Shown here piece after piece: positions 4,238 through 54,005 of a DNA stretch of 64,000 bases. How positions within the stretch are numbered: position 1 is the stretch's first letter; each line of letters opens with the position of its first letter. The DNA is from Candidatus Coprovivens sp. (lineage in GTDB: Bacteria; Bacillota_I; Bacilli_A; RF39; UBA660). Under the pieces are notes generated by a model. It was not told the origin of the DNA. It searched no databases and saw only the letters and a list, made by a program, of their open reading frames with translations. Position numbers and translations under genes: made by a program. The stretch spans positions 1-64,000 of the forward strand of contig JBJFGS010000036.1 of NCBI GenBank assembly GCA_051892935.1, written 5' to 3'.

Positions 4238-4247
4238 TTTCAAAAAC

Positions 4248-4275: not shown

Positions 4276-4278
4276 ATT

Positions 4279-31099: not shown

Positions 31100-33904
31100 C
31101 TACAAATATTTTTTTAACCATTGACCAGTATAACTTTCTTTTACTTTAGCAACTTGCTCTGGAGTACCAGTAGCAACTATCATACCACCTTCATCTCCAC
31201 CTTCTGGCCCTAAATCAATTATATAATCAGCTACTTTAATTACATCTAAATTATGTTCAATCACTATAACAGTGTCACCATTATCAACAATTCTTTGTAA
31301 AATAACTAATAACTTTTTAATATCATCAGAATGCAACCCGGTAGTTGGTTCATCCAAAATAAACACACTCTTACCAGTAGCTTTCTTTTGTAATTCTTTT
31401 GCAAGCTTAACACGTCCTGCTTCACCACCAGATAATGTTGGAGCTGGTTGACCTAATTCAATATAAGATAAACCAACATCTTGCATTACTTGAATCTTAT
31501 TTCTTACTTTAGGTATATTATCAAAAAATTCCAACGCTTCAGAAACTCTCATATGTAAAACTTCTGAAATATTTTTGTCTTTAAATTTAACATCTAAGGT
31601 CTCTCTATTATATCTCGTACCTTTACATACTTCACAAGGGACATAAACATCAGGTAAAAAATTCATTTCTATTTTTTTAACCCCGTCACCCCAACAAGCT
31701 TCACAACGCCCACCTTTAACATTGAAAGAAAATCTATTTTTTCCATATCCTCTCATTTTAGACTCTTTCATTTCGGCAAAAACATCACGTATATTATCAA
31801 ATACACCAACATATGTTGCCGGATTACTTCTAGGTGTCCTACCTATTGGATCTTGAGTAATATGAACAACTTTATCAACATTCTCCATTCCTTTAACTTC
31901 TTTACATTTACCAACAACAACTTTTGATTTATATACTTTCTTAGTTAAAGCATTAAAAAGTATATCATTTACTAAAGTTGATTTACCGGAACCAGAAACT
32001 CCAGTTACACAAATAAACTTTCCTAAAGGGAACTTAACATTAACTTTTTTCAAATTATGTTCTTGAGCACCCTTTATTTCTAAGAATAAACCATTTCCCT
32101 TTCTTCGTTCCTTAGGTACATCTATTTTTTCTTTTCCTGTTAAATACTTACCCGTTAATGAATTAGGATTTTTCATTACTTCTTCAGGAGTACCTGCAGC
32201 CATAATATGCCCACCTAAAACACCAGCACCAGGACCTATATCAACTAAATAATCAGCTGCCATCATCGTATCTATATCATGTTCAACAACAATTAGTGTA
32301 TTACCTAAATCTCTCATTTCTTTCATTGAAGCAATAAGTTTTTCATTATCTCTTTGGTGTAATCCTATACTTGGTTCATCTAAAACATATAATACACCAG
32401 TTAGTTTACTACCAATTTGTGTTGCCAATCTAATACGTTGTGCCTCTCCACCAGACAAAGTTCCTGCAGCACGATTTAAAGTTAAATATCCTAAACCAAC
32501 ATTATTTAAAAACTCCAGTCTATTACATATTTCCTTAACTAATAGTTCACTAATCGTTTGTTGCTCCTTAGTCAATTTTAAATTATTCATAAATTTATAT
32601 AATTCAGAAATAGATAATGCTGTCATATCATAAATATTCTTTTTATTAATATAAACATTCAATATTTCATGTTTTAACCTAGTTCCATGACAAAGTGAAC
32701 ACTCTTGTTCTATCATAAAACCTTCTATCCATTCTCGTATCCATCCAGCAGTTGTTTCTATATATCTTCTCTCTAAATTTGGAATAATTCCTTCAAAAAA
32801 ATCACTTTTAGTACGAATATTTCCATTTTTTGAAACATATTTAAAATCCATTATCTCCGTAGTTCCATAAAGAATTTTATCCAACTTTTCTCTTGGAATA
32901 TCTTTTACAGGCATATTTAAATCAATATCATAATAATCTGCTACAGTAGAAATTTCCGTATATTGAATATTTTGGTCCAAAGATATTGTTACTATTGCAC
33001 CATCATTAATACTTTTACTCGTATTAGGTATTAGTAATTCTTCAGAAATTTTCATTTTCATTCCTAAACCATTACATTCAGGGCATGCTCCCCAAGGAGA
33101 ATTAAAAGAAAACATTCTTGTTTCTAATTTAGGCATCGAATAATTACAATGAATACAAGCATAATTTTCACTCATTAAAATTTCTTCTTGTCCTATTATA
33201 TTAAATAGAACTATCCCGCTTGCAAGCCCACAAGCATTTTCAATAGATTCAAAAATTCTAGATCTATCCTCTTTTCTTACTACTACTCTATCAACAACAA
33301 CCTCTATATTATCCTTCTTATTTTTTTCTAAAATAATATCATCAGCTAAATCTTTTACTTCACCATTAACTCTTACACGACTATATCCTTTTTTTCTCAA
33401 CTCATCTAATACTTGCGCATGAGCACCTTTTTCTCCTCTAACAACAGGTGCCATAATTTCAATTTTCGTTCCTTCCGGAAAATCCATCACTTTATTAGTC
33501 ATTTCTTCTATACTTTGACTCTTAATAGGCTCCTTATGGTTAGGACAATATGGTACTCCAATACGAGCAAACAATAATCTCAAGTAATCATATATCTCCG
33601 TAACTGTTCCAACTGTACTACGAGGATTATTATTAGTACTCTTCTGATCAATACTAATACTTGGACTTAAACCCTCAATACTATCTACATCAGGTTTACT
33701 AGTACCTCCCAAAAATTGTCTTGCATACGCCGATAAGCTTTCGACATAACGTCTTTGTCCTTCTGCATAAATAGTATCAAATGCCAAACTACTCTTACCT
33801 GAACCGGAAACACCAGTCATTACAACCAAAGAATTCTTTGGAATCTCTAAATCCACATTTTGTAAATTATTTTCTCTTGCACCCTTTATTATTATCTTGT
33901 CCAT
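31100..33904 (-). CDS. uvrA: Excinuclease ABC subunit A
   Basis: Two GVSGSGKS P-loops, zinc fingers, LSGGEA signatures. Confidence 0.98.
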   Translation of the reverse strand: MDKIIIKGARENNLQNVDLEIPKNSLVVMTGVSGSGKSSLAFDTIYAEGQRRYVESLSAYARQFLGGTSKPDVDSIEGLSPSISIDQKSTNNNPRSTVGTVTEIYDYLRLLFARIGVPYCPNHKEPIKSQSIEEMTNKVMDFPEGTKIEIMAPVVRGEKGAHAQVLDELRKKGYSRVRVNGEVKDLADDIILEKNKKDNIEVVVDRVVVRKEDRSRIFESIENACGLASGIVLFNIIGQEEILMSENYACIHCNYSMPKLETRMFSFNSPWGACPECNGLGMKMKISEELLIPNTSKSINDGAIVTISLDQNIQYTEISTVADYYDIDLNMPVKDIPREKLDKILYGTTEIMDFKYVSKNGNIRTKSDFFEGIIPNLERRYIETTAGWIREWIEGFMIEQECSLCHGTRLKHEILNVYINKKNIYDMTALSISELYKFMNNLKLTKEQQTISELLVKEICNRLEFLNNVGLGYLTLNRAAGTLSGGEAQRIRLATQIGSKLTGVLYVLDEPSIGLHQRDNEKLIASMKEMRDLGNTLIVVEHDIDTMMAADYLVDIGPGAGVLGGHIMAAGTPEEVMKNPNSLTGKYLTGKEKIDVPKERRKGNGLFLEIKGAQEHNLKKVNVKFPLGKFICVTGVSGSGKSTLVNDILFNALTKKVYKSKVVVGKCKEVKGMENVDKVVHITQDPIGRTPRSNPATYVGVFDNIRDVFAEMKESKMRGYGKNRFSFNVKGGRCEACWGDGVKKIEMNFLPDVYVPCEVCKGTRYNRETLDVKFKDKNISEVLHMRVSEALEFFDNIPKVRNKIQVMQDVGLSYIELGQPAPTLSGGEAGRVKLAKELQKKATGKSVFILDEPTTGLHSDDIKKLLVILQRIVDNGDTVIVIEHNLDVIKVADYIIDLGPEGGDEGGMIVATGTPEQVAKVKESYTGQWLKKYL

Positions 33905-34424
33905 ACATTAACACCTTCCTTATCTGTTTTTCTGCTGATGAATAACTATTATATATATCCAAATAATCAAAATGATAATACAATAAAGATCTAATCACTC
34001 CAAAATCATTTCTAAAATTTTTCAAAAATAATATCTTTTCTTCTTCACTTAATCTACAAGTGCTTAAAAATTTTAAAACATCATGAGGAGGCGAAACAAG
34101 CATCTTATCTATAATTTCATCTCTCGTTAAAAATCTATCAATAGTCATTTCTTCAAAACAATACATATCATAATATCCATTATAATCATCATCTCTTCGA
34201 ATAAAAGCACCTCTACCAGTAACTTCTGCAACTACAACATCTTCTTCCATTGCATTTACATATCTAAATACATCAGATAAAGCTGTACACATATGCCATC
34301 CATTACCATTATTACCGAATTTTAATTCTCCTTTAGTATAATACGTTTTTCCCACAGTAAAAGGCATACCATATCTATTAGTTTCATCTTTATTAAAAGC
34401 CTTATATCCTTTTACTTCAACCAT
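33867..34424 (-). CDS. Hypothetical protein with phage-type 'KGYKAF..GKTY' N-terminal domain
   Basis: VKGYKAFNKD....YG..F.VGKTY.....GWHMC....DVF.Y resembles a domain I recall from Firmicute phage proteins. Confidence 0.55.
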   Translation of the reverse strand: MVEVKGYKAFNKDETNRYGMPFTVGKTYYTKGELKFGNNGNGWHMCTALSDVFRYVNAMEEDVVVAEVTGRGAFIRRDDDYNGYYDMYCFEEMTIDRFLTRDEIIDKMLVSPPHDVLKFLSTCRLSEEEKILFLKNFRNDFGVIRSLLYYHFDYLDIYNSYSSAEKQIRKVLMYGQDNNKGCKRK

Positions 34425-34426
34425 AG

Positions 34427-35230
34427 TTATCTCCTTAAATCATAAAAATTACATTTACAACAAAGTTTATGTATTTTTTTATTATTCAAAAAACCTTGTT
34501 TCATTTCTTTAAACAAATCGCCACTTATTATACCATTTAAATCCTGTTTGTAAATATTTCCTAAATTAATAACTCCTTCACTATCTAAACAACATGGAAT
34601 AACAGTTCCATCCACTAATATACCAATATGATCCCTTAATCCTCTACACGAACCAATCTCATTATAATAAGAATTTTCAAAACTAGGCCAAATAAACTCT
34701 TCTTCTACTTCATAATAAATATTATTTGCTAATTTTAAATTTTTAGAATCATTAATATGTACATTATATTTTTCATTTAATCTATTCAATATAGTATCTT
34801 TATACTTACTATCAACCCAAACTCTATATTTAACATAAGTGTTATTAAGTACTAATTTATCAACAACATTAAAAACATCATCTATATATTCATCAAAAGA
34901 TTTATTATATCTATCATCAAAACTATGCAATGATATATTTATCTGTCTAATATTTTTATTATCTTGAATCCTCTTAATTAAATAACCATTACTAGTTATA
35001 TTAACGTAATAACGTTTACTAGCTAAATTAATTAATTCATTTATATTAGGATGTAAAAGTGGCTCTCCCATAACATGAAAATACAAATACCTAGTATATC
35101 CTTCTAACTTATCTAATAATACATTAAATTGTTCTAAAGAAATAAACTTTTTATCTCTTTTATTTCTTATACAAAAAGAACAATCTAAATTGCAATTATT
35201 AGTTATTTCTAAATATATTTTTTTAAACAT
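34427..35230 (-). CDS. Radical SAM protein with SPASM/Twitch domain
   Basis: CNLDCSFC, GEPLLHP, C-terminal C...PCC...CCKC. Confidence 0.9.
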   Translation of the reverse strand: MFKKIYLEITNNCNLDCSFCIRNKRDKKFISLEQFNVLLDKLEGYTRYLYFHVMGEPLLHPNINELINLASKRYYVNITSNGYLIKRIQDNKNIRQINISLHSFDDRYNKSFDEYIDDVFNVVDKLVLNNTYVKYRVWVDSKYKDTILNRLNEKYNVHINDSKNLKLANNIYYEVEEEFIWPSFENSYYNEIGSCRGLRDHIGILVDGTVIPCCLDSEGVINLGNIYKQDLNGIISGDLFKEMKQGFLNNKKIHKLCCKCNFYDLRR

Positions 35231-35247
35231 ATAAAACACCCAAGAAT

Positions 35248-35275
35248 ATTATAGCACACATTTGTTCGTTGTAAA
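35248..35275 (-). promoter_or_regulatory. Sigma-A promoter with putative LexA (Cheo) box in the spacer
   Basis: TTTACA-16 bp-TATAAT with extended TG; spacer contains CGAACAAATGTGTG (35268-35255). Confidence 0.5.
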
Positions 35276-35396
35276 CTAATCTCTTATTTTTTATACTACA
35301 CAACATGAATATAAATATAATTAATATTCCATTATAGATATAGTATCTAAATAATATAAATATTTTCTATAAAATTAAATTAGTAACATTAATGGA

Positions 35397-35744
35397 GTGA
35401 TTCTTATGAACAGAATAAAAGAGTTAAGAAAAAAAAGAAAAGTTACCCAAATAAGACTAAGCATCGCTGCAGAGGTATCGCAAGAAACAATTTCTGCTTA
35501 TGAAAATGGTAAAGCAGAGCCAAAAATGGACAAACTTATTAGAATCGCCGACTTTCTTAATACATCAACAGATTACCTGCTAGAAAGAACAGATAACGAT
35601 TCCCCATTAATTGAAATAACTAATAATATAGTCGATGAACAACTTAATGAATTAATAAATAACTATGCTAAATTAAATCATTATCAGAGAAAAGACTTAG
35701 TATGGTATAGTGGAATTATAGAAAATAAAGACCTTAACAATTAA
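35397..35744 (+). CDS. XRE-family helix-turn-helix regulator
   Basis: RIKELRKK..TQ..L...VSQ.TIS.YE.G..EP....L..IA.FL..S.DYLL. Confidence 0.92.
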   Translation: MILMNRIKELRKKRKVTQIRLSIAAEVSQETISAYENGKAEPKMDKLIRIADFLNTSTDYLLERTDNDSPLIEITNNIVDEQLNELINNYAKLNHYQRKDLVWYSGIIENKDLNN

Positions 35745-35760
35745 GGTCTTTATTTTCTAT
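35718..35760. terminator. Bidirectional terminator, perfect 20-bp inverted repeat
   Basis: ATAGAAAATAAAGACCTTAA-caa-TTAAGGTCTTTATTTTCTAT overlapping both convergent stop codons. Confidence 0.8.
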
Positions 35761-36488
35761 TCTTTATAAACATTTTTTATTGTTACGCTACTAGCTTCAC
35801 CATCTCCACCTTTAGTAATAACAATCTCTTTACCATCTTTAACATTTCCAACTCCATCTAAAGAGTCACTAATTTTACCCAAATCTCTAATTATTTCATC
35901 AGAAGTCTTATTTGACATAAAGTCAAAATAATCCATTTCATCACCAATCAAAGATTGATATACATCTTCTTCTGAATACTTAACTGGCGGTACAGTGATT
36001 GATTTTTTTTCTCTTTTCAAAGCCCTATTAAAAGAATTAATAGCTCCATTTACTTCCATTCCCATATAAGCATTCTTTAAATCTAACAATCCCGTTAATT
36101 TAATGTCCTCTGCTTGTGAATCAACATTCATTTGATCAGTTTGTCTCATTATATCTTCCATATTTCTAAGACCAAAAACACCAACAATTTTATCTCTCTC
36201 ATACGATCCATATTCATCTGAATCTTCAATTTTTCCACGAGCCAAATGTTTACTCATTAAATCTTCAGCTTTAGCCTCTGGTACTTCAGTGCCACTTTCA
36301 ACATGTTTATAATTTCCATTATCCATTAAAATATAAAAAGATAAATAATTATCTACATAAGTAAACAAAAAAGAATCATATACCAATTTACCATTTTCAA
36401 TACTAGTCATAATAGTAAAACTTTTACGAACACTATAACCACCAAAAATATATTTAGCAGGAATATTTTTTAACATATAATTAAACAT
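35757..36488 (-). CDS. Hypothetical protein
   Basis: 243-aa ORF coupled to the SDR gene; no motif recognised. Confidence 0.6.
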   Translation of the reverse strand: MFNYMLKNIPAKYIFGGYSVRKSFTIMTSIENGKLVYDSFLFTYVDNYLSFYILMDNGNYKHVESGTEVPEAKAEDLMSKHLARGKIEDSDEYGSYERDKIVGVFGLRNMEDIMRQTDQMNVDSQAEDIKLTGLLDLKNAYMGMEVNGAINSFNRALKREKKSITVPPVKYSEEDVYQSLIGDEMDYFDFMSNKTSDEIIRDLGKISDSLDGVGNVKDGKEIVITKGGDGEASSVTIKNVYKE

Positions 36489-36490
36489 TT

Positions 36491-37243
36491 TTAACGAACC
36501 TTCTTTCTTTGAATAATACCTACTACTTTTAAAGACAATTTATATGGAATAAATCTATTTAAAAATAATCCAAGCTTAGTAGAAAAACCAGGTACAATAA
36601 GCATTTTACCTTTTAACATTTTATCAACAGCATACTTTGCTACATACTCACTACTTAAAGCCTTTATAGTAAATTTACCTCCAGCTACTTTATTAAAATT
36701 AGTATTAACAGGACCAGGACACAAACAACTAATATGAACATTACTTTTAATATATTTCAATTCCTCATATAATGCCATTGTCCACTTAGCAACATAATTC
36801 TTTGTAGCATAATAAGTATTAAGACCAGGTCCCGCTAAAAATCCAGCACTACTAGAAACATTAAGTATATATCCAGAATTTCTTTTTACCATATCTTGCA
36901 AAAACATCTTAGAAAGAATATGTAAAGCCGTAATATTAAGCTCTATCATTTTTAATTCTCTATTAATATCAGTCTCCCAAGTATTCCCAAACAAACCAAA
37001 TCCAGCATTATTAACTAGTATATCTATTTTCTCATTTTTATATTTATCATATAATTTAAAACAATTATCTTTTCTGGTTAAATCCATAGGACATATTTCA
37101 ACATTAGTATTTATTGAATTAGCGGTCTCCTTTAATCTATTTTCATCTCTACTAACTAAAATCAAATCATATCCAAGATTACCCAAATATCTTGCAATAT
37201 CCCTTCCGATTCCAGAAGAAGCTCCAGTTACTAATGCTTTCAT
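36491..37243 (-). CDS. Short-chain dehydrogenase/reductase
   Basis: TGASSGIG, NNAGFG, YYATK, LCPGPV. Confidence 0.93.
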   Translation of the reverse strand: MKALVTGASSGIGRDIARYLGNLGYDLILVSRDENRLKETANSINTNVEICPMDLTRKDNCFKLYDKYKNEKIDILVNNAGFGLFGNTWETDINRELKMIELNITALHILSKMFLQDMVKRNSGYILNVSSSAGFLAGPGLNTYYATKNYVAKWTMALYEELKYIKSNVHISCLCPGPVNTNFNKVAGGKFTIKALSSEYVAKYAVDKMLKGKMLIVPGFSTKLGLFLNRFIPYKLSLKVVGIIQRKKVR

Positions 37244-37294
37244 ATTATCACCTAATAATATTTTACCATAAAAAAAGAAGAATACTCTTCTTTT

Positions 37295-38632
37295 TTATCC
37301 CAAATATCCAGATGAATCAGCAAGATAGATAACATTCGTATTTACAGAATATTTTTTTAAGAAAGTATCAACATCTATAGGAGCTGCATTATCATCATTT
37401 TTATCAGCTGAATCCGATATGTAAAATTGATCTGTTTTAGGATCATAATCAACAATAGCAACCCAGTGAGTATTATTCGTATATTTATTATTATATCGAG
37501 AATCAACAGTAACCATAACCATATTACCTTTCGAAACCTCAGTAGTTAAATGGTTTTTATAAGCCGGATAATTACTCCTAGATACTTCATCTCTTGAACC
37601 AACAGGTATTCCAAGTTCATTTTCCAAGTAATTTTTAATCGTACCAGCATATAAAAACTTTTGACCCATAGCTACAAATAATTTTTCCGGAGTAACATCA
37701 TCATACTTAGAACTCAAAATACTAGCTAAGGCATTATAACCACAACCTGCACTCCTTAATGTCTTACCTGTATCAACAAATCTTAGGTTTTCATTCCATC
37801 CCTGCTGGAATACAGTAACAACCTTTCCGTGAGAAGTAACAATTTTTCTACTATATCCCTCTTCTTGACTTCCTTCATCATTTAATAATATAGTTTGTCC
37901 TGATCCCAACAAAGAAGACAAATCCTCATCGCCACTTTCTAAAGCTTTATTTACAGCTTCGGTTGCCATTGCCACATATTCTTCTTCTTTTGCAGTCAAA
38001 TCTAATCCTTCTATTTCAGATATTTCTTCGTCTTCAGTTGCATTATTACTTCCTTTTACAGCATTAAAACTTGCAACACTACCATTTAAACCCTTAATGG
38101 TATCGACAGTTGAATCAATATTAACAATTAATTCTTCCAATTCTTTTTTTAACTGATTTACTAATTCTGTCAATTCTTTTTTCTTTTTTTCATATTCCTT
38201 GTATTCAGAAGTTAATTCACCAGTATCAACATCTTTACCATTAACTCTTTTAGTTTCATATTTTGGAGAAGGTTCTTTTAAACTATTCAATTCATCCAGT
38301 TTCTTTTCATACAACTCATCTTTTTCTTTTAAAGTAGTTACAAAAGGCAACAACGTATTAATAGACTCTGTACAAGCAACCTGCAACCCATTAGAAACAC
38401 TAGCTTGAAACTTTTCCAATCTCTCTTTCAAAGCAGGAACAGAAACCGTAACAAGTTGTTCTTGCCCTAACTCCTTCCAATCCGAAGACTCTAACTGCGA
38501 TTGCAACTTTTCTACCGACTTAATTAATGAAGAAACATTGCCGGACAATGTACTAGCCTTACCAACAATATCGGTAGAAGCATTTAATTCCTCATAATAT
38601 TTAGTATAAGGAGCAACAAAAAAAATTGCCAT
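37295..38632 (-). CDS. WXG100-like/coiled-coil N-terminus fused to a C39-like cysteine peptidase
   Basis: Helical hairpin with central DWKELG; C-terminal QQ.W...GCG..ALA.IL...HWVAI.DYD....Y.SDS. Confidence 0.72.
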   Translation of the reverse strand: MAIFFVAPYTKYYEELNASTDIVGKASTLSGNVSSLIKSVEKLQSQLESSDWKELGQEQLVTVSVPALKERLEKFQASVSNGLQVACTESINTLLPFVTTLKEKDELYEKKLDELNSLKEPSPKYETKRVNGKDVDTGELTSEYKEYEKKKKELTELVNQLKKELEELIVNIDSTVDTIKGLNGSVASFNAVKGSNNATEDEEISEIEGLDLTAKEEEYVAMATEAVNKALESGDEDLSSLLGSGQTILLNDEGSQEEGYSRKIVTSHGKVVTVFQQGWNENLRFVDTGKTLRSAGCGYNALASILSSKYDDVTPEKLFVAMGQKFLYAGTIKNYLENELGIPVGSRDEVSRSNYPAYKNHLTTEVSKGNMVMVTVDSRYNNKYTNNTHWVAIVDYDPKTDQFYISDSADKNDDNAAPIDVDTFLKKYSVNTNVIYLADSSGYLG

Positions 38633-38643
38633 AATATCACCTT

Positions 38644-38973
38644 CTATATTACATCAAGCTCATCAGCTTGAATATCAACACTTTTCTCCTGAACATTTTC
38701 TTCTTGTTTATATAAACTTAATGTATTCTTTAAAAAAATATCATATTCTTCCAATCTATTTTCAATTTCAGGAAACTTAGAAGCTATTTTTTTATAATGA
38801 TTATAAAGTATTTCTTGAGCCTTACCACTCCAAATTGTTAAGTGCGTACCATCAACTTTGCTCATTTCATCATTAATATCTTCAATTAATTTTTTCACTT
38901 CAGAAATCTTACTTTCAAATAAATCTAAGTTTTTTTCAAATTCCGAAGCATTAATCTTTAATATCTTAGACAT
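38644..38973 (-). CDS. WXG100-family protein
   Basis: 109 aa, central WSG, C-terminal YKQEE (YxxxE); RBS AGGAGGAG. Confidence 0.82.
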   Translation of the reverse strand: MSKILKINASEFEKNLDLFESKISEVKKLIEDINDEMSKVDGTHLTIWSGKAQEILYNHYKKIASKFPEIENRLEEYDIFLKNTLSLYKQEENVQEKSVDIQADELDVI

Positions 38974-39274
38974 TGTCAAACTCCTCCTCTTTACTAACAA
39001 CTTCTTTCCATTCGACATCAGTCATATTATATAAACCAGAAGATTTCTTTATCAAAGCACCTACACGTTTTACTTCTACAACATCAGATTTTCTATTTTT
39101 TAAATATGTAGTTGAATTGTTAATAAAAATTGAACAATCATTTCCTTCCCAACAATCCCCAAAATTATTAATTAAAACAATCAATTCATTAATCTTTCTA
39201 TTCAAATCAATAGCTTTATTTTCAACAGAACTACCAATTCTACTTATTTCCCTATAATTAACATTTAATTTCAT
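38966..39274 (-). CDS. WXG100-family protein
   Basis: About 102 aa, central WEG, C-terminal YNMTD (YxxxD). Confidence 0.82.
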   Translation of the reverse strand: MKLNVNYREISRIGSSVENKAIDLNRKINELIVLINNFGDCWEGNDCSIFINNSTTYLKNRKSDVVEVKRVGALIKKSSGLYNMTDVEWKEVVSKEEEFDNV

Positions 39275-39276
39275 TT

Positions 39277-40218
39277 TCAAGCCCCTTTTAAATCTCCTAA
39301 ATAATCAACACTACTTAATACTTTCTCGGTAGTTACTCCATTATCTTCTGCTACTTTATCAACAAATTCTCTAACCATGCTAACAGTATTATCACTAATA
39401 TCATATTCAGATAGATTTTCTCCTAAATATAATTTATTAATAGAGTTTAATAATAAATCTTCATATTTTTCATCTAATAATAATTCACTTATAGAAATAT
39501 TATTATTCTTAGCAATTGAAACGAAATACTTCTTAGCCATAAAAATTACATTATCATTAAACTTTATATTATCTACAATACCTTCATTATTTAACACTTT
39601 TTCTAAAAATAGTTTTTGAATATTAAAAGATTCTTCTGAGATTTCAGTATCTATATTAATAGTTGTATCTCCGTAATATTTTTTTAGTAAACATAACAAA
39701 ATACCAGATCCTACATCCGAAAGTAAAATATCATTTATAGAATATTCACCCTTATTAATATCTAAAAAAGACACAATACTTTCAACTTCAACACCTGTAA
39801 TAGAATTAATACTTTCTGAAATATTAGAATTAGAAATAGATACATTATTATTAACATCAGAAACTTCTACCGATTCTATAGAAGAATAATAAGAACCACT
39901 TCCACCACTAGCTGCTGCAGCACCAATAATCTCTTGCTGTATCTGTTTAGCAATACTCTCCTCTAATTCTGATATCTCATCAGCATGTAAAGTTATCTTT
40001 GTCATTAAATTCTCATTACTTTGTTTCAAAGCTTCAATTTGAGATTTCAATTTTGCCAAACCTTCACTAAACAAATCCAAACTCACAAGTACATCAAAAT
40101 CTTTAGATAAAGATGCAAGCATCGAATTCTCAATTATGTTTAAAGTACCATCTAATATAGTTATTACATTCATAACATCATCAGTACTAATATTAATTTT
40201 TTCTCCGTTAGTAGCCAT
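39277..40218 (-). CDS. Hypothetical protein with WXG100-like helical N-terminus and acidic repeat C-terminus
   Basis: About 95-aa two-helix N-terminus without the Trp, AAAASGGSGS linker; first gene of the coupled operon. Confidence 0.6.
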   Translation of the reverse strand: MATNGEKINISTDDVMNVITILDGTLNIIENSMLASLSKDFDVLVSLDLFSEGLAKLKSQIEALKQSNENLMTKITLHADEISELEESIAKQIQQEIIGAAAASGGSGSYYSSIESVEVSDVNNNVSISNSNISESINSITGVEVESIVSFLDINKGEYSINDILLSDVGSGILLCLLKKYYGDTTINIDTEISEESFNIQKLFLEKVLNNEGIVDNIKFNDNVIFMAKKYFVSIAKNNNISISELLLDEKYEDLLLNSINKLYLGENLSEYDISDNTVSMVREFVDKVAEDNGVTTEKVLSSVDYLGDLKGA

Positions 40219-40295
40219 TTTTAATCACTCTGTTCTATTTACTATTTTCTCTATTATATAATATCAAAAAAAACCATTAATAAACACCCAAAAGC

Positions 40296-40661
40296 TTAAT
40301 TTTTTACCAACATAACACCTTTTCTTAACATACTACTTGAAACATTAAGTAATTGAATACCAACATTTTCACCTTCACTAGCTGAATCAAGTATTTGTCT
40401 AAATTTTTCAATTTTACCAACTATTACAACTTCACCAGTATCTTTAATAATAAGTTGATCTCCTGATTTAACAGAACCTTTTACTATTTGACCAACAACA
40501 ACTTTCCCAAGACCAGAAACAGAAAAGATATCATCAATTATAAAGCAAAAAGAATAGTTTCTTCCAACTTCATCATGCATTTGCATATCTTTCATATAAC
40601 TACTTGTATTCCCAGTAACATCAATTTCCCTTTTCTTAAAAATTAAATCTAATAATCCCAT
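40296..40661 (-). CDS. Stand-alone EF-Tu domain II-like beta-barrel protein
   Basis: IDDIFSVSGLGKVVVGQ...IEKFRQILDSASEGENVG aligns to [17 protein letters not shown]...[18 protein letters not shown] of tuf in this window. Confidence 0.85.
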   Translation of the reverse strand: MGLLDLIFKKREIDVTGNTSSYMKDMQMHDEVGRNYSFCFIIDDIFSVSGLGKVVVGQIVKGSVKSGDQLIIKDTGEVVIVGKIEKFRQILDSASEGENVGIQLLNVSSSMLRKGVMLVKN

Positions 40662-40711
40662 ATATTTCACTCCTTATCATATATCTATTTTACCACAAAA
40701 AGAAGAAAGGT

Positions 40712-42343
40712 TTATCTCCTTTCTTCTAATTCTAGTAAAGGTGGTAACATTTGTTTCTTCCTTGAAACTACACCATCCAAATAAACACCTTGTATAGCAT
40801 GAGATATTCCATAAGCTTCTTCTAATATATTTTCACTACTATCATTAAAGAATAGATAAGAACCATTCTTTATAATATCAGTAACAAATAACAAAGATAC
40901 ACTGAAATTACCAAACTGTGTCATATTATTTAACTCAGAAACAATTTCATCCTTACGTTTTAATAATTCATCAAAATCCATTGTAACAACTTGTCCAATA
41001 GCCATATTAGAATCCCCATATTTAAATGTCTTCATATCATTATGTATTATTTCATCAACAGACAATCCAGCTACCGAAGAAGCAGCCTTAAACATCTTAG
41101 TACCATACTCTAAAATATCAACACCAGCTATTTTAGCTAATTCTTCACCAACTTCTTTATCTAAAGAAGTTGTAGTAGGAGACTTAAATAATAAGGTATC
41201 AGATAAGATAGCAGACAACATAATACCAGCTATATCTTTAGGAATCTTAATACTAGCTTCTTGATATAACTTATAAATAATAGTACATGTACATCCAACA
41301 GGCATACATCTAAAATTAATAGGCATAGAAGTACCAATAGTACCCAAATTATGATGATCAATAACTTCCAATATATTAGCTTCCTCAATACCATCAACAC
41401 TTTGTGATTGTTGATTATGATCAACTAAAATAACTTGTTTTCTTTCAAAATCATTTGCATCAACTAATCTCATCATTCCTAAACAAATATTCTTTTTATT
41501 AACAATTGGATAATTAGTATGTCCTAACTTACTACTTACATCAATAAAATCATTCCTATAATCATAAACATTAAAAGTAACTGGTGTAGGATTAATATTA
41601 ATCAACTTAACATAATTACATAACTTAATCATATTAGAAGTCTTATAAGTTCCCATTGGAACACACACTACATTTATCTTTTTCTTCCTAGCTTGTTCCA
41701 ATAAATCTGCAGATAATTTAACATTATTAACTAATAACATTAGTTTTACTCCCGAATCAACACAATACTCTTGAATTTTATATCTATCACCAACAATAAC
41801 TATATTATCAGAATTTAATTTTACTCTATTTATAAAAGTTTCACTTTTATAAGCCGCAGCTAATATATTACCTTCTATCTCATCATCAAATCTCAAAACT
41901 TCAGTAGCATTCAACGTTTTTAAAACATTATCGTAAGAAGTATATAAATAATTAATATCTCCTTCAATTAAATATTTAGAAATTCCTTTCACATTAACAT
42001 ATCCTGTTAACTTCTTATTTTTATTAACAAGAGGAAAACCTGTTACTCCAAATTGTACCAAAGACTTATAAGCTTCAAATATAGAAATATGTTCTTCAAT
42101 CATAGCTTCAGTATTATAATTCATATTCTTAATTTGAACTTTTACATCATTTAAAAACTCAGGCTCCGGAATATTAAAATAATCTAAAACAAATTTTGTT
42201 TCTTTATTTAAAGTCCCAAGAACTCTTGGTTCAGTATCCATTCCCAATTTATTTTTTAAGTAAGATAAACTGATACTTGCACATACTGAATCAGTATCGG
42301 GCATTTTATGTCCAAATATATAAACTGTTTGCATCAATATCAC
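40712..42343 (-). CDS. ppaC: Mn-dependent family II inorganic pyrophosphatase with CBS/DRTGG insert
   Basis: GHKMPDTDS, VGDR, LVDHN, IDHH, SDTL, VVSRKKQ. Confidence 0.93.
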   Translation of the reverse strand: MILMQTVYIFGHKMPDTDSVCASISLSYLKNKLGMDTEPRVLGTLNKETKFVLDYFNIPEPEFLNDVKVQIKNMNYNTEAMIEEHISIFEAYKSLVQFGVTGFPLVNKNKKLTGYVNVKGISKYLIEGDINYLYTSYDNVLKTLNATEVLRFDDEIEGNILAAAYKSETFINRVKLNSDNIVIVGDRYKIQEYCVDSGVKLMLLVNNVKLSADLLEQARKKKINVVCVPMGTYKTSNMIKLCNYVKLININPTPVTFNVYDYRNDFIDVSSKLGHTNYPIVNKKNICLGMMRLVDANDFERKQVILVDHNQQSQSVDGIEEANILEVIDHHNLGTIGTSMPINFRCMPVGCTCTIIYKLYQEASIKIPKDIAGIMLSAILSDTLLFKSPTTTSLDKEVGEELAKIAGVDILEYGTKMFKAASSVAGLSVDEIIHNDMKTFKYGDSNMAIGQVVTMDFDELLKRKDEIVSELNNMTQFGNFSVSLLFVTDIIKNGSYLFFNDSSENILEEAYGISHAIQGVYLDGVVSRKKQMLPPLLELEERR

Positions 42344-42377: not shown

Positions 42378-43808
42378 CTAAATATTAACAGCTTTAATTT
42401 TGGGATTAGTATTATTTAAAGAATAAACTAAATCCCTATCAACCAATACAATTGGATTCCTCTTAAACCAATCTGGCAATAATTCCGGATTATCACAATC
42501 AGCATCTCTATAATCTTCAAGATGACGACAATTAGCTCCAAATTCATCATCAATTAATCTATCTTTTATATAATAACCGCTTCTCATAAATGCTTGTTGA
42601 AAATTAATAATATCTTGGACTTCAGACGCTAAAAGAGGTCTACTTAAATACTTTTGTACTTCAATAGCACCAGTAACTTCACCTTTATTATTTCTAACAA
42701 TATCTTCTTCTAAATTTTTTAAAATTAAATACCCATTAGGACATATATTTTCCTCAAAAGACCATTTTTTATCAGAACACTTTATAACATAGTCACCTAT
42801 TCTAAAAGTTCTAGTACAACTTCCTCTTCCAGCATCACAAACCACTCTAGAACCAGTACTTAAAGCCAAATATTTTGAAACATATTCTAAAAACTTATCT
42901 CCTAAAGAATTAATAAATATATTTTCAATCATTTTCTCATCTATTTCAATAAATGGTCTAATTTTAGAATAAAATTCATCATATATCACCTTATTTAGAT
43001 ATTTTCCATACTTAGTAAATAAAACATATTTATAATTCTTTGAAGTTTTAAATAATATATCAATATCACTTATCAAATAAAATAAATTTAAAGGATTAAC
43101 ACTTTCTATTAATTTACCATATCTATCTAACTCAGCCGCTAAAGAATTACTAGAATAATTATTTAATATAAAATCTCTTATTTTTAAATATAACTCCTCA
43201 TTAGTAGTATGCATTAAAATTAAAGAAGCTATCTTAGAAACATAACATTCTTTCATTTTTTCTACTTCTATTCCTTTTTCATTATATTTAACAAAACATT
43301 CTATAACATCATCAAATAAAAAATTAAATAACTCAGGAAAAGAATCTAATACTTCTATAATAAACATTGCTCTTATTTTCATATTAGGACTATCTTTTAA
43401 CTTATTAGTTAATCTATAATCATTAGTTCTTTTAGAATACCTAATAATAGCAAATAAACAATCCTTATTATCACTAACTATATAATTTAATTCTTCATAT
43501 ACAAAATTAACAACCCATTCACCAGATAATAAAAAATACAATAAAAATTGATAATCAAGTAAAATACTATAATTATTCCTTAATAATCTTATCCAATAAG
43601 CTTGATAATACTCTATATCATAAGTGATTTTAAACGCAAATACCGGATACTCATTAACGATATCTTTAAAAGAATTAAATAAAATATTATTTCTATAAGG
43701 CGACACTCTAACTTCATTTGCTAAAGCATCCAATTGATCAGATGTTAATTTACCTAAAAAACTAATATTACAAGATAACAACTTATCTAAAATTCTTTCA
43801 GATAACAT
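42378..43808 (-). CDS. Hypothetical helical protein with C-terminal protein-kinase-like domain
   Basis: GRGS loop, YVIK, EVQKYL, YIKD......N, VLVD in the expected order. Confidence 0.55.
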   Translation of the reverse strand: MLSERILDKLLSCNISFLGKLTSDQLDALANEVRVSPYRNNILFNSFKDIVNEYPVFAFKITYDIEYYQAYWIRLLRNNYSILLDYQFLLYFLLSGEWVVNFVYEELNYIVSDNKDCLFAIIRYSKRTNDYRLTNKLKDSPNMKIRAMFIIEVLDSFPELFNFLFDDVIECFVKYNEKGIEVEKMKECYVSKIASLILMHTTNEELYLKIRDFILNNYSSNSLAAELDRYGKLIESVNPLNLFYLISDIDILFKTSKNYKYVLFTKYGKYLNKVIYDEFYSKIRPFIEIDEKMIENIFINSLGDKFLEYVSKYLALSTGSRVVCDAGRGSCTRTFRIGDYVIKCSDKKWSFEENICPNGYLILKNLEEDIVRNNKGEVTGAIEVQKYLSRPLLASEVQDIINFQQAFMRSGYYIKDRLIDDEFGANCRHLEDYRDADCDNPELLPDWFKRNPIVLVDRDLVYSLNNTNPKIKAVNI

Positions 43809-43910
43809 AATATTTCCCCTTTTCTTTAAGAGAGATATTTTATCACACAATAATACTACTAATATATAAATTTTTTTTATATGGATATAAAAAACTACAT
43901 AATGTAGTTT

Positions 43911-47676: not shown

Positions 47677-50205
47677 TTATCTCTTAATAAAATTAGTATA
47701 TTCATTAGTATTTGAATAAACATCTTTTACATAGTTTTTAAACAAATTCAAAATCTCATCTTCTGTAATTGAATAATCAGATTGTTCTTTTGATAATAAT
47801 CCATAATAATCTAATACTGTTTCTAAGAAAATTTCATGATATTCATCTCCATCATATTGAATTTCATCTTCTACACTACTTGAATATAAAAATCCAATAC
47901 ATAAATGAGATTCACTAGACATAAGCTCCAAATATACCTCATTAAAAGGAACAATCACTCCATCTTCAAAAATCAAGTTATAAACAGGATGAATATTTAC
48001 AACATCTTTTTCAGCATCATATGTAAAATTACCATAGTAACGATTAATAATTCTTGAATAATCAGCACCGGCAATAAATTTATTAAAATAAGTACCATTT
48101 AAATACATAGAAACATCTAATGAAAATAAGTCAACTCCAAATTTATAATCACCAATAAAATCGCACAATTTCATATCAAGGCCTTCTACGAAGTCATTAT
48201 CTTGATAAATTATCTGACTATTACTCTTCAACTGAAAACAATTAGTACCATCTGCTCTTTGTCCTATATTAACTACTGCTTCATAGAAATAATCTTGGCC
48301 TATTTCTTCTTCACCCATATAAAATATAATCTTTTTATAATCAACCGAATCTAACCTAAATACATCTTGCCAATAATTTTCATTTAACAATACATTTTCA
48401 ATATTTAAATTAGAAAATAAACTTTTAAAAAATCGATGTTGAAAATAGTAATCTTCTGTCGATGTATTAAATCCTCTAAAATCACTTTTATCCATAACAA
48501 CTACTTTACCATTTTCATTAAGTACAAAAACTTCTTTCTCTGTATTAATATGTTGATCATAATCTTCTACTTGTATTATTGGATAAAGAACATCATCATT
48601 AGTAACACCATAGCCAATTACTACAATATCTTTATATTTATTTATTATATTTTTCATTTCCTCTACTGTCATGGTCTTATCTCTACTAATACCATGACAA
48701 TACAAATAATCATTATAAGTTTCTAATAACTTACAATAATGATTTTCTAATTCTTCTAAAGTTACAAAATCATAAAAATAAAACTCACTATCAACAAAGT
48801 CTCTAAAAAATCTATACAAATCATCTTGAATAATAAAATTCTCATCTTCAGTAGATAAAACATTTCTCATATGAGTTATTTCATTTGTACAATAATCATA
48901 CATTATAATAAACTTATTCACACTAGTTAGTAACTTTCCTTCATCATATCCATAATCCAATAAAATGCTATTATACTCATTCAAATAATAATCAGCAACT
49001 TCAGAATAAGCACTACAATTAACTAACTTCAAAAATTCTACTAAAGGTTGATAAATACTATTACTTGTCATATCAATATTCAATTTACAAATTTCAAAGA
49101 GCTCATCTAAAATATGAACATTCTCTTCTAAACGTAAATTCTCGCCAAACTCAATTTCTGTATCATTCATTGCATCTACTGCATTAATAATATAATCAAT
49201 ATCAACTGAAGGATATTTATCATTCAATAATTTAATTAATTTTGGTATTCCTTCTCTTTCATAATCATAATAATTATAATTTACACAGCTTAAAAAATAT
49301 CTTAATACTTTACCTTCTCTTGCATAAGTAGTAACAGGAACTATTCCATTTGTTATTTCATTTGTCATTGCTTCATCTAAAGAATAGCCTACTTCTTCAC
49401 AACGAATCTTAGGATATATAGCCTTATCCTCTTTCCAATGATGATATGAATGTACCATTTCATGGATTATTACATGCTCACTTTCAGCATAATCTTCTCT
49501 AAGTGATGTAACATTAAGATGAGCATTATAAGTACCAGCAACATACTTACTCATCGAACTTTTAGATACTACTCTGACTAAACCATCTTTAACATTCTCG
49601 TAAAAGATTCTTGCATCAGCTTTTGGATATTTATTCATTACATAGTTTATTAAATTAACTGCATAATTCTTATAATAAGTAGATATTTTATTATTAGTAT
49701 TAATTGCTTCTATTATTTCCTCTTTACTAACGTAATCATACCCCAATATTTCATCAAGTTCATTGGTATTATTAATCACAGTTCCATTTACATAACCCAT
49801 AGTAACTTTATAACGATCATTTTCTTTTACTAATTTAAAATTCCTACTCATAGGCATTCCTGCAATTGACATTGCTCCGATTAATAATGCCATTTCAATA
49901 GCTATAGCCCCTGTAAAAACTCGTACAGCTTCTTTGAAAACTATTATTCGATTTTTCTCCGAATGAATAGGAAGTGATGCTCCAACAGAATAAGTAGATA
50001 AATTATTATGAGAAATAAATAAGTCACGTTCATTATATACTCGATGTAATTTCATAAAATCATCTAACAATGGATATTCATAATTTCCCCTATCCGACAA
50101 CTCTAAAAATGTTCTTCGACCATATCTATCTATAAAGATAGTAAAATTTTTATCATTATATTTTATATTAAATAATCTTTGATAAACCATATCTTTTTTT
50201 TCCAT
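47677..50205 (-). CDS. Large membrane-anchored protein with HExxH zinc-metallopeptidase motif
   Basis: TM helix near residue 110-130; HEMVH followed by LDEAMTN. Confidence 0.6.
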   Translation of the reverse strand: MEKKDMVYQRLFNIKYNDKNFTIFIDRYGRRTFLELSDRGNYEYPLLDDFMKLHRVYNERDLFISHNNLSTYSVGASLPIHSEKNRIIVFKEAVRVFTGAIAIEMALLIGAMSIAGMPMSRNFKLVKENDRYKVTMGYVNGTVINNTNELDEILGYDYVSKEEIIEAINTNNKISTYYKNYAVNLINYVMNKYPKADARIFYENVKDGLVRVVSKSSMSKYVAGTYNAHLNVTSLREDYAESEHVIIHEMVHSYHHWKEDKAIYPKIRCEEVGYSLDEAMTNEITNGIVPVTTYAREGKVLRYFLSCVNYNYYDYEREGIPKLIKLLNDKYPSVDIDYIINAVDAMNDTEIEFGENLRLEENVHILDELFEICKLNIDMTSNSIYQPLVEFLKLVNCSAYSEVADYYLNEYNSILLDYGYDEGKLLTSVNKFIIMYDYCTNEITHMRNVLSTEDENFIIQDDLYRFFRDFVDSEFYFYDFVTLEELENHYCKLLETYNDYLYCHGISRDKTMTVEEMKNIINKYKDIVVIGYGVTNDDVLYPIIQVEDYDQHINTEKEVFVLNENGKVVVMDKSDFRGFNTSTEDYYFQHRFFKSLFSNLNIENVLLNENYWQDVFRLDSVDYKKIIFYMGEEEIGQDYFYEAVVNIGQRADGTNCFQLKSNSQIIYQDNDFVEGLDMKLCDFIGDYKFGVDLFSLDVSMYLNGTYFNKFIAGADYSRIINRYYGNFTYDAEKDVVNIHPVYNLIFEDGVIVPFNEVYLELMSSESHLCIGFLYSSSVEDEIQYDGDEYHEIFLETVLDYYGLLSKEQSDYSITEDEILNLFKNYVKDVYSNTNEYTNFIKR

Positions 50206-50514
50206 CTCTATCATCCAATTCTCATTAATTATTATAACATACATCAAAAAAGTAATAATTAATAACTATAAATTATAATAAATCTATTATTCATATAAAA
50301 AACATCTAATAAAAATAAATCAGTAGCGAGGAATTAAAATGATTTTTAGTACACCTATTTTAGCATTAATAACCATCCTACTACAATTTAATAAGATTAT
50401 CTTTATTTGATTAACTAAATAAAAAATGTAATAAAAACACTATTACATCAACTCATTTCTCATCATATTAAATAAATATTTAGAAAATACTAACTTTTAA
50501 AGTAATTTCTTTAT

Positions 50515-52658: not shown

Positions 52659-54005
52659 TCAATATAATTTTTCATCTTTTAATATACTATTAAATATCTC
52701 ACTTTCCCCCTTATTAAACCTATCTTTTATTATATTTACTAAACATTTTTGTAAATCAATAAAATGCTTAGAACTAAGTCTTTCTCTTATCATTATACTT
52801 TTTAAATTAGTATATAATTTAGCTAAATCCATAATATTCATAAACCTTGTATAACCATATATCAGATTAATTTTGTTAAAAATAGTATGAATATTTTGAC
52901 ATAAATAAATCATAATTTTATCATTAACAGCTTTATAAACATCATCTATTGAAGGTAAAAAAGATTCAATATTTCTAAATTCAACATAACCTTTCTCAAC
53001 AATCATATATTTAGATGAATCCATAATCTCTTGTTTAGTAATAATATCTACATTTTCTATAGATTCTTTTAAATAAGTATAAAGCTTAGAATATAAATTT
53101 ATTTTAGAAATACCACCATATGCATTTATTGTATAATTCATTAAAACTCCTAAAGTAGAACTCTCACTACTATAGTTAATAAGTTCTCTATATATGCAAT
53201 CAACTACTTCTCTAGCGCAATTAAAAACTTTATCAACAGGATAGGTTATATCAACTGTTTTAGAAGTCAAATTATATATTCGTCTATCCAAATCATACAT
53301 ACATTTAACATAAATTCTCCTTTTCTTTTCAAAAGAAGAATAATTTAACTTACTATCTGTAACAAACGGATTATCGTTACTATTAATTAATGCATTTTTA
53401 TAATTATCATTTTCTAATTCAAAAGACTTTTCATCAAAAACCATTTTATTATTAGTAATCTTTATATGTACAAAATAATTATTATTTCTATCTAAACTAG
53501 TAACAACAGAATAACTAATTTTTTTTTCTTCTTTCATATGACCATTTTGAATTATTAAATCATTTTTTAATTTTGTTTTCTCATTATTCTTTCGTACATC
53601 AATCATATTTAAAAAAATAGTATATTCATTTAATAAATAATTAAGTATTTGCCCAAGACTTTTTAAACATTGTAATTCTCGCATTATTTTTTTACAATAT
53701 CTAACATCACCTTTTTTTAAAGATTTATTAATTAATAAAAGATTACTTACTAATACTTCTTGTAAAAATCTTTCATCACTCTGTTTAATTTCTATTTTTT
53801 CAACTTTATCTATATTTTTTTTTATTTTATCAATATATTTATTTTTATTACCAGTTTCAATAAACTTATTCCAATTTGAATCAAGAGAATTAGCTAAAAA
53901 TTCTGAAAGTTCATTAACATAATTCAAATTATTTTTAAACAATATATCAATAAGAGTTAACTTATTAATAATCTTCTCTTGCTTTAAAGTCATAAGAACC
54001 ACCAT
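52659..54005 (-). CDS. Hypothetical protein
   Basis: 448-aa ORF; no motif recognised. Confidence 0.6.
   Translation of the reverse strand: MVVLMTLKQEKIINKLTLIDILFKNNLNYVNELSEFLANSLDSNWNKFIETGNKNKYIDKIKKNIDKVEKIEIKQSDERFLQEVLVSNLLLINKSLKKGDVRYCKKIMRELQCLKSLGQILNYLLNEYTIFLNMIDVRKNNEKTKLKNDLIIQNGHMKEEKKISYSVVTSLDRNNNYFVHIKITNNKMVFDEKSFELENDNYKNALINSNDNPFVTDSKLNYSSFEKKRRIYVKCMYDLDRRIYNLTSKTVDITYPVDKVFNCAREVVDCIYRELINYSSESSTLGVLMNYTINAYGGISKINLYSKLYTYLKESIENVDIITKQEIMDSSKYMIVEKGYVEFRNIESFLPSIDDVYKAVNDKIMIYLCQNIHTIFNKINLIYGYTRFMNIMDLAKLYTNLKSIMIRERLSSKHFIDLQKCLVNIIKDRFNKGESEIFNSILKDEKLY

Follow-up and report, generated by a model that had tools for sequence, protein, structure and literature searches.

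Contig JBJFGS010000036.1 of Candidatus Coprovivens sp. (assembly GCA_051892935.1) carries, within the 64,000 nucleotides that we analysed (positions 1 to 64,000; hereafter the window), a block of four genes on the minus strand between positions 37295 and 40218, which an earlier reading of the sequence (the original prediction) had proposed to be an effector-plus-carrier module of type VII secretion. Gene 1 (39277..40218) encodes an acidic protein of 313 residues that belongs to no known family, gene 2 (38966..39274) and gene 3 (38644..38973) encode WXG100-like proteins of 102 and 109 residues, respectively, and gene 4 (37295..38632) encodes a protein of 445 residues in which three parts can be told apart. 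Specifically, gene 4 comprises an N-terminal helical domain (residues 1-195; 38048..38632), presumed to be a trafficking (shaft) domain, of a family that is unnamed in any library; an acidic linker of variable length (residues 196-244; 37901..38047) that is gap-rich and poorly conserved in the family alignment; and a papain-fold cysteine peptidase domain of the Peptidase_C39_2-like type (residues 245-445; 37298..37900). Our main new result concerns the first of these parts, which is a portable front-end module.

Scanning representative genomes with gene 4 gave matches in 20 stretches, of which four encode relatives (L001 to L004), and we read the gene starts from the DNA and compared them with those of the orthologues in L001 and L002. 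In their longest forms the open reading frames of gene 2 and gene 3 span 38966-39280 (104 residues from a TTG codon) and 38644-39018 (124 residues). The most likely start of gene 2 is the ATG at 39274, 2 bp past the stop codon of gene 1 and preceded by the ribosome-binding site AAGGGG; we dropped the TTG at 39280 because the ATG fits both the ribosome-binding site and the orthologues. Gene 3 starts with the ATG at 38973, overlapping gene 2 by 8 bp (ATGTCTAA) and using the ribosome-binding site GAGGAGGAG, and gene 4 starts 11 bp past the stop codon of gene 3, behind AAGGTGA. The junctions measure +2, -8 and +11 bp, and a separate ribosome-binding site belongs to each; they are exactly the 2-11 bp gaps or 8 bp overlap described originally, and the observation of four translationally coupled minus-strand genes is confirmed. 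The further features named at the outset, namely WEG and WSG with YxxxD/E in the small proteins, DWKELG in gene 4, a gene 1 free of Trp and the lack of a signal peptide on any of the four proteins, were all seen: the highest 19-residue Kyte-Doolittle mean across genes 1-4 is 1.54, and there is no signal peptide or membrane segment. A hairpin with a T-run (37265..37296, minus strand) that overlaps or directly follows the stop codon of gene 4 is likely an intrinsic terminator that closes the operon (fold -9.3 kcal/mol, z = -2.5); the consensus terminator scan missed this hairpin because it has too few G-C pairs. The 77 bp upstream of gene 1 (40219..40295, minus strand) are a possible promoter and contain a block rich in A/T (TTTTTTTGATATTATA) that is also conserved in L001; the promoter scan reported nothing in this interval. 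The ribosome-binding site of gene 1, AG(A/G)GTGA, is retained in all three loci, and an Rfam scan of 35000-42000 gave zero matches.

To follow the N-terminal domain of gene 4 beyond these loci, we built a profile from residues 1-200 of four proteins (window, L001, L002 and L003), with which 1.84 billion representative proteins were searched. The profile matched 153 representatives at E <= 1e-3, of which 83 remained at <= 1e-10 and 16 at <= 1e-30, in proteins of ~65 to 5353 residues, and among the matches listed the domain begins within the first 20 residues in 143 of 150 representatives; in the tail of the matches there are a few obvious artefacts caused by coiled coils or repeats, namely a YadA-type protein, a NACHT-HEAT protein and an MraW fragment. 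We then clustered the regions past residue 195 of the 104 representatives of at least 300 residues, 10 artefactual or N-truncated rows having been dropped, by single linkage (blastp E 1e-4, at least 60 residues), and obtained 22 C-terminal clusters. Because the domain is N-terminal in proteins with at least 22 unrelated C-terminal regions, residues 1 to ~195 of gene 4 constitute a portable front-end module, of a family that Pfam does not name. A homologue search with the alignment of the domain that was limited to longer proteins returned only two close relatives.

What lies behind the domain was assessed by running Pfam on 145 of the 150 listed representatives (P0166 was too long and four were already known as gene 4 homologues). 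PF13529 was found in 15 of them (8 of 75 at E <= 1e-4 and 7 of 70 at E <= 1e-3), a Glucosaminidase domain in P0191 (E 1e-31), a PIG-L deacetylase in P0131 (E 3e-9) and an M90-type zincin above the cut-off in P0175, with weak matches to the last in P0144, P0099 and P0116. Matches to a GDSL esterase (P0192) and to ATLF (P0144) were weak and below the cut-off, and one to NlpC/P60 (P0094) was weak. Several of these payloads would work on the cell envelope from its outer side. A C-terminal cluster of 17 members includes giants of 1400-5353 residues with a common middle domain, and the giants that were scanned (P0166 being excluded by its length) gave no Pfam match. The giants that start with the domain, and whose conserved middle region lies just behind it, include P0166 (5353 residues), P0190 (3014 residues), P0173 (2376 residues) and P0170 (1648 residues).

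The domain carries the signature M-x-x-Y-F-x-x-x-Y-x-x-Y-Y-x-x-L ... W52-x-E/G-x-G56 ... L94 ... K102. Over 121 aligned representatives the conserved positions are Y9 (111), Y12 (101), L16 (108), W52 (105), G56 (86), L83 (111), L94 (116) and K102 (97); position 54 is E in 88 and G in 29, so that 29 of the 121 have a canonical W-x-G. The protein of gene 4 reads D51-W-K-E-L-G56 here, with W52, E54 and G56 invariant in all 26 sequences of the family alignment described below. WXG100 was the commonest weak Pfam match of the N-domains that were searched (4 of 16), tied with a coiled-coil family and having the lower best E-value (1.9e-4); Pfam WXG100 also matches the N-terminal parts of P0180 and P0196, and gene 3 matches that of P0196 by phmmer (E 4.9e-5 in a set of 146 sequences). 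Amphipathic periodicity at 100 degrees is pronounced in the N-terminal part of gene 4 (z = 4.0 vs -0.9 for the catalytic part), and it is on periodicity of this kind that the putative helical hairpins and coiled coil of the original prediction rest. Among the neighbour clusters of the domain in the ESM Atlas a single one carries LXG, on 23% of its members and at a score of 0.87. Profile searches of the PDB with full-length gene 4, the N-domain, the C-terminal part alone, gene 1 and P0196 gave coiled-coil noise or nothing significant.

The C-terminal domain of gene 4 matches Peptidase_C39_2 (PF13529) over residues 293-409 at 29.2 bits, above the gathering score of 24. Homologues of gene 4 fall into 31 clusters at E <= 1e-3, all of them unnamed, and 29 of the 31 carry PF13529. 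We aligned the window protein with 25 homologues, leaving out one near-identical copy, two near-duplicates (P0007 and P0020) and three shorter sequences (P0014, P0029 and P0031). C297, H389 and D407 are invariant in all 26 sequences of this alignment and also in 9 of 9 divergent sequences, the L004 protein included, which points to Cys297, His389 and Asp407 as the probable catalytic triad and bears out the apparently intact Cys/His/Asp C39-like domain that had been described. The closest relative of the catalytic domain outside the family, a protein of 331 residues from an Oscillospiraceae genome (L004, 9797-10792, plus strand), has a hydrophobic N-terminal leader, the same GHWVAIVDYD core as gene 4 and a type I dockerin, and looks like a cellulosome-attached cysteine peptidase. 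Given its leader, this nearest outside relative would go to the cell surface via the general (Sec) pathway.

With the catalytic-domain profile, the sole non-trivial match in the PDB was to the pseudomurein endoisopeptidase PeiR (8z4h, E 0.0012), and only its His-Asp half was aligned. PeiR is described as a virus-encoded lytic enzyme that cuts a cell-wall isopeptide bond (PMC4592898), and PF13529 has served as a domain for the mining of lysins (PMC10541714); proteins with PF13529 are presented as having no established substrate in the account of PMC10318531. A hidden Markov model (HMM) of the C-terminal part of gene 4 matched only 6 of the 104 long representatives, so that calling the largest C-terminal cluster C39-like depends on Pfam hits close to the cut-off. 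Since the same N-domain also carries a glucosaminidase, a deacetylase, a possible esterase and NlpC/P60, and given the weak similarities just described, we think that the target of the payload is probably a cell-wall peptide.

Genes 2 and 3 resemble the WXG100 superfamily, whose C-terminal pattern has been given as HxxxD/ExxhxxxH (PMC3935865). In gene 2, W42-E-G44 is invariant in 3 of 3 orthologues, as is the C-terminal Y82xxxD86xxW89xxxV/I93, which conforms to the full pattern. Gene 3 reads W48-S-G50-K-A-Q, and its W-x-G-K-A-Q and Y88xxxE92 are invariant in 3 of 3 orthologues, with the 'h' position hydrophobic in one of the three and Q in the other two. When profiles of the three orthologues were compared with the PDB, gene 3 aligned over its full length with EsxA (3zbh, E 0.0012), Staphylococcus aureus EsxA (2vs0/2vrz, 0.011) and SAG1039 (3gvm, 0.014), the top row of the search being a viral spike coiled-coil artefact, and gene 2 aligned end to end with Bacillus anthracis EsxB entries (4j41, E 0.0062, and 4iyh; E 0.006-0.015), which make up 6 of its 9 matches and in which the Trp residues are aligned. 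The first match of gene 2 in the ESM Atlas scored 0.95 with 217 of 256 features shared, and 25 of its 30 matches lie in WXG100 clusters. Gene 3 scored E 1.5e-6 against NCBIfam ESAT6_2 (NF035934; 28.3 bits vs a cut-off of 100) and E 0.0059, below the cut-off, against Pfam YwqH-like, and amphipathic periodicity has z = 1.5 for gene 2 and z = 2.6 for gene 3. No single one of these lines of evidence is strong; taken together, they lead us to regard genes 2 and 3 as probable divergent members of the WXG100 superfamily, as had been proposed.

Gene 1 has an amphipathic N-terminal part of ~100 residues (periodicity over residues 1-105, z = 3.0), a Gly/Ser/Tyr linker (~100-115) in which G106 and Y111 are invariant, and a conserved C-terminal part of ~190 residues; there is no Trp in the protein. 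Its homologues form 23 clusters, all lineage-restricted, of which 22 have no precomputed Pfam domain and the remaining one has a domain but covers only 20% of the query. Searches of Pfam, NCBIfam, PHROG and the PDB with gene 1 all ended without a match. We considered the conserved C-terminal L-K-G of gene 1 as a secretion signal and dropped it, because the same codons form the ribosome-binding site of gene 2. From its position, our guess is that gene 1 might be a third shaft partner or a chaperone, on the analogy of the three partners of EsaD (PMC10653861) and of the toxin-specific chaperones described for LXG toxins (PMC12478183).

Comparison of the related loci indicated that the block is maintained as a unit in part of its range. 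L001, whose protein is 76% identical to gene 4 in the genome scan, retains the neighbourhood from uvrB to uvrA and has the same four genes in the same order and with the same coupling; L002 (52% identity) keeps four genes, order and coupling in a different neighbourhood, next to a transposase, a germination protease and SpoIIP. In L003, from an uncultured member of the Bacilli (40% identity), there is the peptidase gene only, between a metallo-beta-lactamase-fold gene and rimP-nusA, and in L004 (29% identity) the similarity covers the C-terminal part of gene 4 only. The notion of a conserved gene cluster thus holds for L001 and L002 and not for L003, where the peptidase gene stands alone, and small partner genes lie directly upstream of the peptidase gene in three of four genomes (window, L001 and L002; not L003). 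HMMs of genes 1, 2 and 3 found no further copies in the window. Relative to L001, the ratio of non-synonymous to synonymous substitution rates (dN/dS) is 0.18, 0.21, 0.29 and 0.08 for genes 1-4, in that order, so that gene 4 is the slowest-evolving of the four, and it is 0.07 for the neighbouring dehydrogenase and 0.05 for uvrB; protein identity is 68-79% for the four genes and 89-94% for these neighbours (uvrB 94%). The four genes are under purifying selection, yet they evolve faster than their surroundings.

We compared the block with known systems. LXG toxins are reported to require two helical Lap proteins encoded upstream, with which they form a shaft (PMC9600955; PMC10801868). Like TelC-LapC1-LapC2 and TelA-LapA3-LapA4 of Streptococcus intermedius, the block combines an N-terminal helical domain of ~200 residues with a C-terminal enzyme that varies, has no signal peptide, has two small predicted-helical proteins encoded directly upstream, shares a partner motif of the YxxxD/E or FxxxD type and may sit away from the machinery genes (PMC9600955; PMC10801868; PMC10765036). 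Unlike them, gene 4 has no Pfam LXG match and bears W-x-E/G-x-G rather than L-x-G, its putative partners are weakly WXG100 and of no Lap family, a partner of 313 residues would be extra, no immunity gene is present and the payload is a C39-like peptidase. Indeed, the Lap families DUF3130, DUF3958, DUF5344 and DUF5082 were unmatched by genes 1-3 (Pfam, E <= 1), YwqH-like being the nearest family for gene 3. EsaD of Staphylococcus aureus is reported to require three small partners encoded upstream, EsxB, EsxC and EsxD, export factors that build a long shaft and of which at least one is a WXG100 protein (PMC10653861), and here too there are three upstream-encoded proteins and one large candidate effector; in contrast, EsaD is a nuclease with the immunity protein EsaG and the chaperone EsaE beside the machinery genes, whereas the third partner here would be a protein of 313 residues from no known family and neither an immunity gene nor a chaperone was recognised.

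Genes 2 and 3 share with EsxA and EsxB (PF06013; 3zbh, 2vs0, 4j41) a length of ~100 residues, a central WxG, the HxxxD/ExxhxxxH pattern, a bicistronic arrangement and end-to-end profile alignments of marginal score, and differ in scoring under the curated cut-offs and in adjoining a candidate effector gene rather than machinery genes. The peptidase domain has the papain-fold Cys/His/Asp arrangement of Peptidase_C39_2 (PF13529), Tox-PLC39, PeiR and PeiW and passes the Pfam cut-off, and PeiR can be aligned with its His-Asp half, in a match that is marginal and covers part of the domain only. C39-like domains have been predicted as heads of polymorphic toxins, and N-terminal WXG-like helical domains have been described as strictly tied to type VII secretion (PMC3482391). 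On these analogies, we file the block as a module that would work like the LXG/Lap or EsaD/EsxBCD systems and that falls outside the LXG family as currently modelled. The original conception of an effector with small partners and a non-LXG N-terminus is in this respect supported by the WXG100 relatives, the portable N-domain and the lack of an LXG match.

[quoted passage not shown] From the features described above we infer binding among the proteins, export, its route and a substrate as follows. Genes 2 and 3 would form a bicistronic WXG100-type pair that binds the N-terminal domain of gene 4 to give an elongated shaft, by analogy with Lap1-4 and EsxB/C/D, and a YxxxD/E-type helix surface on this shaft would be recognised by an EssC ATPase. 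Gene 1, with its helical N-terminal part, would be a third accessory factor, either shaft partner or chaperone. The C39_2-type papain-fold Cys-His-Asp peptidase would be exported without a signal peptide and act outside, its most likely substrates being peptide or isopeptide bonds in wall peptides belonging to other bacteria; as no immunity gene lies next to gene 4, the producer itself would seem not to be a substrate. As a separate observation, a FemAB-family peptidyltransferase gene (13092-14345) is one of just two large genes that the window has on its plus strand. Enzymes of the FemAB type modify peptidoglycan cross-bridges, and this one could have a bearing on self-resistance to a wall peptidase.

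Several findings weigh against this view. There was no match to FtsK/SpoIIIE (EssC), EsaA, EssA, EssB or YukD in the 64-kb window, where all open reading frames without a family were re-scanned at lax thresholds with Pfam and NCBIfam, nor was there any machinery match in the fetched DNA of L001, L002 and L003 (~54 kb, or ~118 kb with the window), so that the absence of EssC, EsaA and EssB noted originally extends to these flanks. We regard the missing machinery as weak evidence against type VII secretion, because LXG loci are often remote from the core genes and because only ~118 kb were read; in the account of PMC10765036 such loci are frequently distant from machinery genes, examples being those of Bacillus subtilis and that of TspA in S. 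aureus. Gene 4 is not followed by an immunity-like gene, in agreement with what had been noted: a terminator and the dehydrogenase gene come next in the window and in L001, and rimP in L003, the L002 sequence stopping ~300 bp past gene 4. Almost all characterised LXG toxins are said in the same account to have an immunity gene (PMC10765036). Gene 3 scores below the curated cut-offs of PF06013 (16.2 bits vs 27.3, E 0.013) and TIGR03930 (18.3 vs 44.85, E 0.002), gene 2 has no Pfam match at E <= 1, and the PDB profile matches of both are marginal (E 1e-3 to 1e-2). LXG (PF04740) is absent at E <= 1 for gene 4 and 16 N-domain sequences, and at E <= 1e-4 or 1e-3 among the 145 representatives; the ESM Atlas score of the N-domain is only 0.87-0.88; and hhalign comparisons among the alignments of genes 1-3 and the N-domain are not significant. 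The L003 peptidase gene has none of the partners of genes 1-3 within 10 kb on either side by HMM search. Finally, the listing in PMC3482391 places Tox-PLC39 with type II secretion, type VI secretion and Photorhabdus virulence cassette (PVC) systems and not with type VII secretion, and our literature search on C39-like or papain-like type VII payloads found no paper describing one, only EssH, a CHAP hydrolase.

Export may be as we propose and the role a different one, with the peptidase being no weapon but trimming the wall of the producer, whether as an autolysin, in sporulation or germination, or as an EssH-like helper that opens the wall for the secretion machine. Such a housekeeping function would explain the missing immunity gene, gene 4 being followed after 51 bp by the dehydrogenase gene, and it fits the low dN/dS of gene 4, the solitary peptidase gene among rimP, nusA and infB in L003, the marker genes indicating that the lineage forms spores, and the precedent of EssH, a papain-fold (CHAP) wall hydrolase reported as required for T7SSb secretion (PMC13059805; PMC10765036). 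Against it, the occurrence of one N-domain ahead of no fewer than 22 C-terminal regions that are unrelated to each other, some of them in proteins of 1400-5353 residues, is the pattern of polymorphic effectors, and the module outpaces its neighbours (gene 4 is 79% and uvrB 94% identical to L001). EssH itself is exported by the Sec pathway. We consider a housekeeping role unlikely, while taking it seriously.

A second possibility, to which we give distinctly less credence, is that the proteins are exported by a route other than the canonical T7SSb, the lineage lacking EssC and using WXG-like carriers for a different or much reduced machine that is independent of Sec. The empty machinery search of the 64-kb window and ~54 kb of fetched loci speaks for it, as do the position of the N-domain outside the LXG model and gene 1 as a new component. 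All characterised WXG100- and LXG-type substrates are, however, described as dependent on an EssC/EccC ATPase (PMC10765036; PMC3482391), a substrate locus frequently sits at a distance from the machinery genes (PMC10765036), and the DNA that we have seen is a small fraction of each genome. Were the genomes to lack EssC, a WXG-type cargo without a known machine would be more surprising still.

It is also improbable that the proteins stay in the cytoplasm as a helical scaffold with a processing peptidase, such as a C39-type maturation protease, whose targets might be the Gly-rich linker of gene 1 or a double-glycine leader peptide. Classical C39 peptidases are described as cleaving double-glycine leaders (PMC3482391; PMC10318531), gene 1 has a conserved Gly-rich linker with an invariant G106, and no export signal of a known kind is proven. 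Yet no ABC transporter or bacteriocin-like gene was found in the neighbourhood of the block, gene 4 has no match to the classical C39 family (PF03412) at E <= 1, and the Gly-Gly of the gene 1 linker is not retained in L002. Moreover, a glucosaminidase, whose substrate lies outside the membrane, stands behind the same N-domain, and for the catalytic domain the closest relative outside the family is predicted to be Sec-exported. That the block is left over from the lysis or tail module of a prophage, for example an endolysin with helical partners, would agree with the use of PF13529 in phage-lysin mining (PMC10541714) and with the weak PDB match to a methanogen-virus lytic enzyme, but is very improbable given zero tblastn matches of gene 4 among 50,697 records of phages and 72,556 plasmids, a best PHROGs E-value of 0.006 across the four proteins, and neighbours (uvrA, uvrB, pyrophosphatase and dehydrogenase) that stand in the same order in L001.

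Returning to the view of the block as type VII cargo, we tentatively suggest, as a bolder proposal that we doubt more than we believe, that residues 1 to ~195 of gene 4 represent a separate, unnamed branch of the WXG/LXG superfamily of type VII trafficking domains that fronts an arsenal made up mainly of envelope-degrading enzymes and giants of up to 5353 residues in uncultured low-GC Bacillota. Its cargo would be delivered by a WXG100 pair and a 313-residue factor, without cognate immunity, and would serve as an interspecies wall weapon or a host-directed toolkit and not be directed at kin, as the toxin/immunity systems known to date are. For comparison, the characterised T7SSb effectors are given in PMC10765036 as nucleases, NADases, membrane-depolarising toxins, a lipid II phosphatase and lipases, and immunity genes adjoin nearly all of them. 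If the reading of the block as type VII cargo is right, a front-end family would have been missed by the LXG and WXG100 models and surveys of type VII cargo would undercount it; the cysteine-peptidase, glucosaminidase and deacetylase payloads would suggest that the cell wall is attacked from outside; and a new accessory protein of 313 residues would be added. Type VII secretion would also be placed in uncultured lineages of Bacilli, of which we met no report in a literature search that was aimed at payloads rather than lineages.

The surroundings of the block are chromosomal in character. The window has a GC content of 0.22-0.35 and a GC skew between -0.19 and -0.49 in all 2-kb bins, and its gene content is that of bacterial housekeeping (uvrA, uvrB, EF-Tu, EF-G, ribosomal proteins, nusG/secE, lgt, cdaA and tRNA synthetases). 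The minus strand holds all but two of the large open reading frames of the window, an extreme strand bias, and there are no tRNA genes in the 64 kb. The neighbours of the four genes are uvrA, uvrB, a pyrophosphatase gene and the dehydrogenase gene, the last being a short-chain dehydrogenase, and their order in L001 is identical. The window also contains markers of spore formers, namely a CtpB-like S41 peptidase and a GerS-like lipoprotein (828-2210 and 2928-3935), and L002 contains others, the Gpr germination protease and SpoIIP (3081-5125). These markers speak against a strongly reduced, Mollicutes-like lifestyle, so that the lineage is not obviously 'reduced' and the description of it as a reduced-genome lineage was not borne out.

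Directly upstream of gene 1 (40296-40670, minus strand) lies a gene for a stand-alone EF-Tu domain-2-like barrel protein of 124 residues (Pfam GTP_EFTU_D2, E 2.2e-9, with partial matches to selB and EF-Tu models), which sits behind a terminator-like hairpin (40701-40727), is present in L001 (7962-8327) and is absent from L002. Between the DHH/DRTGG pyrophosphatase gene and uvrB, 42378-43850 (minus strand) encodes a conserved protein of 490 residues with no Pfam or NCBIfam family, whose counterpart in L001 is at 4815-6245. Two further open reading frames, of 856 and 448 residues (47677-50247 and 52659-54005, both minus strand), gave zero Pfam or NCBIfam matches at lax thresholds. On the other side of the block, a radical SAM/SPASM gene (33867-35239, minus strand) is followed by a DUF7666 gene that overlaps the start of uvrA; beside them, on the opposite strand, is a gene for an XRE-type helix-turn-helix regulator (35397-35744, plus strand), and this trio is also found in L001.

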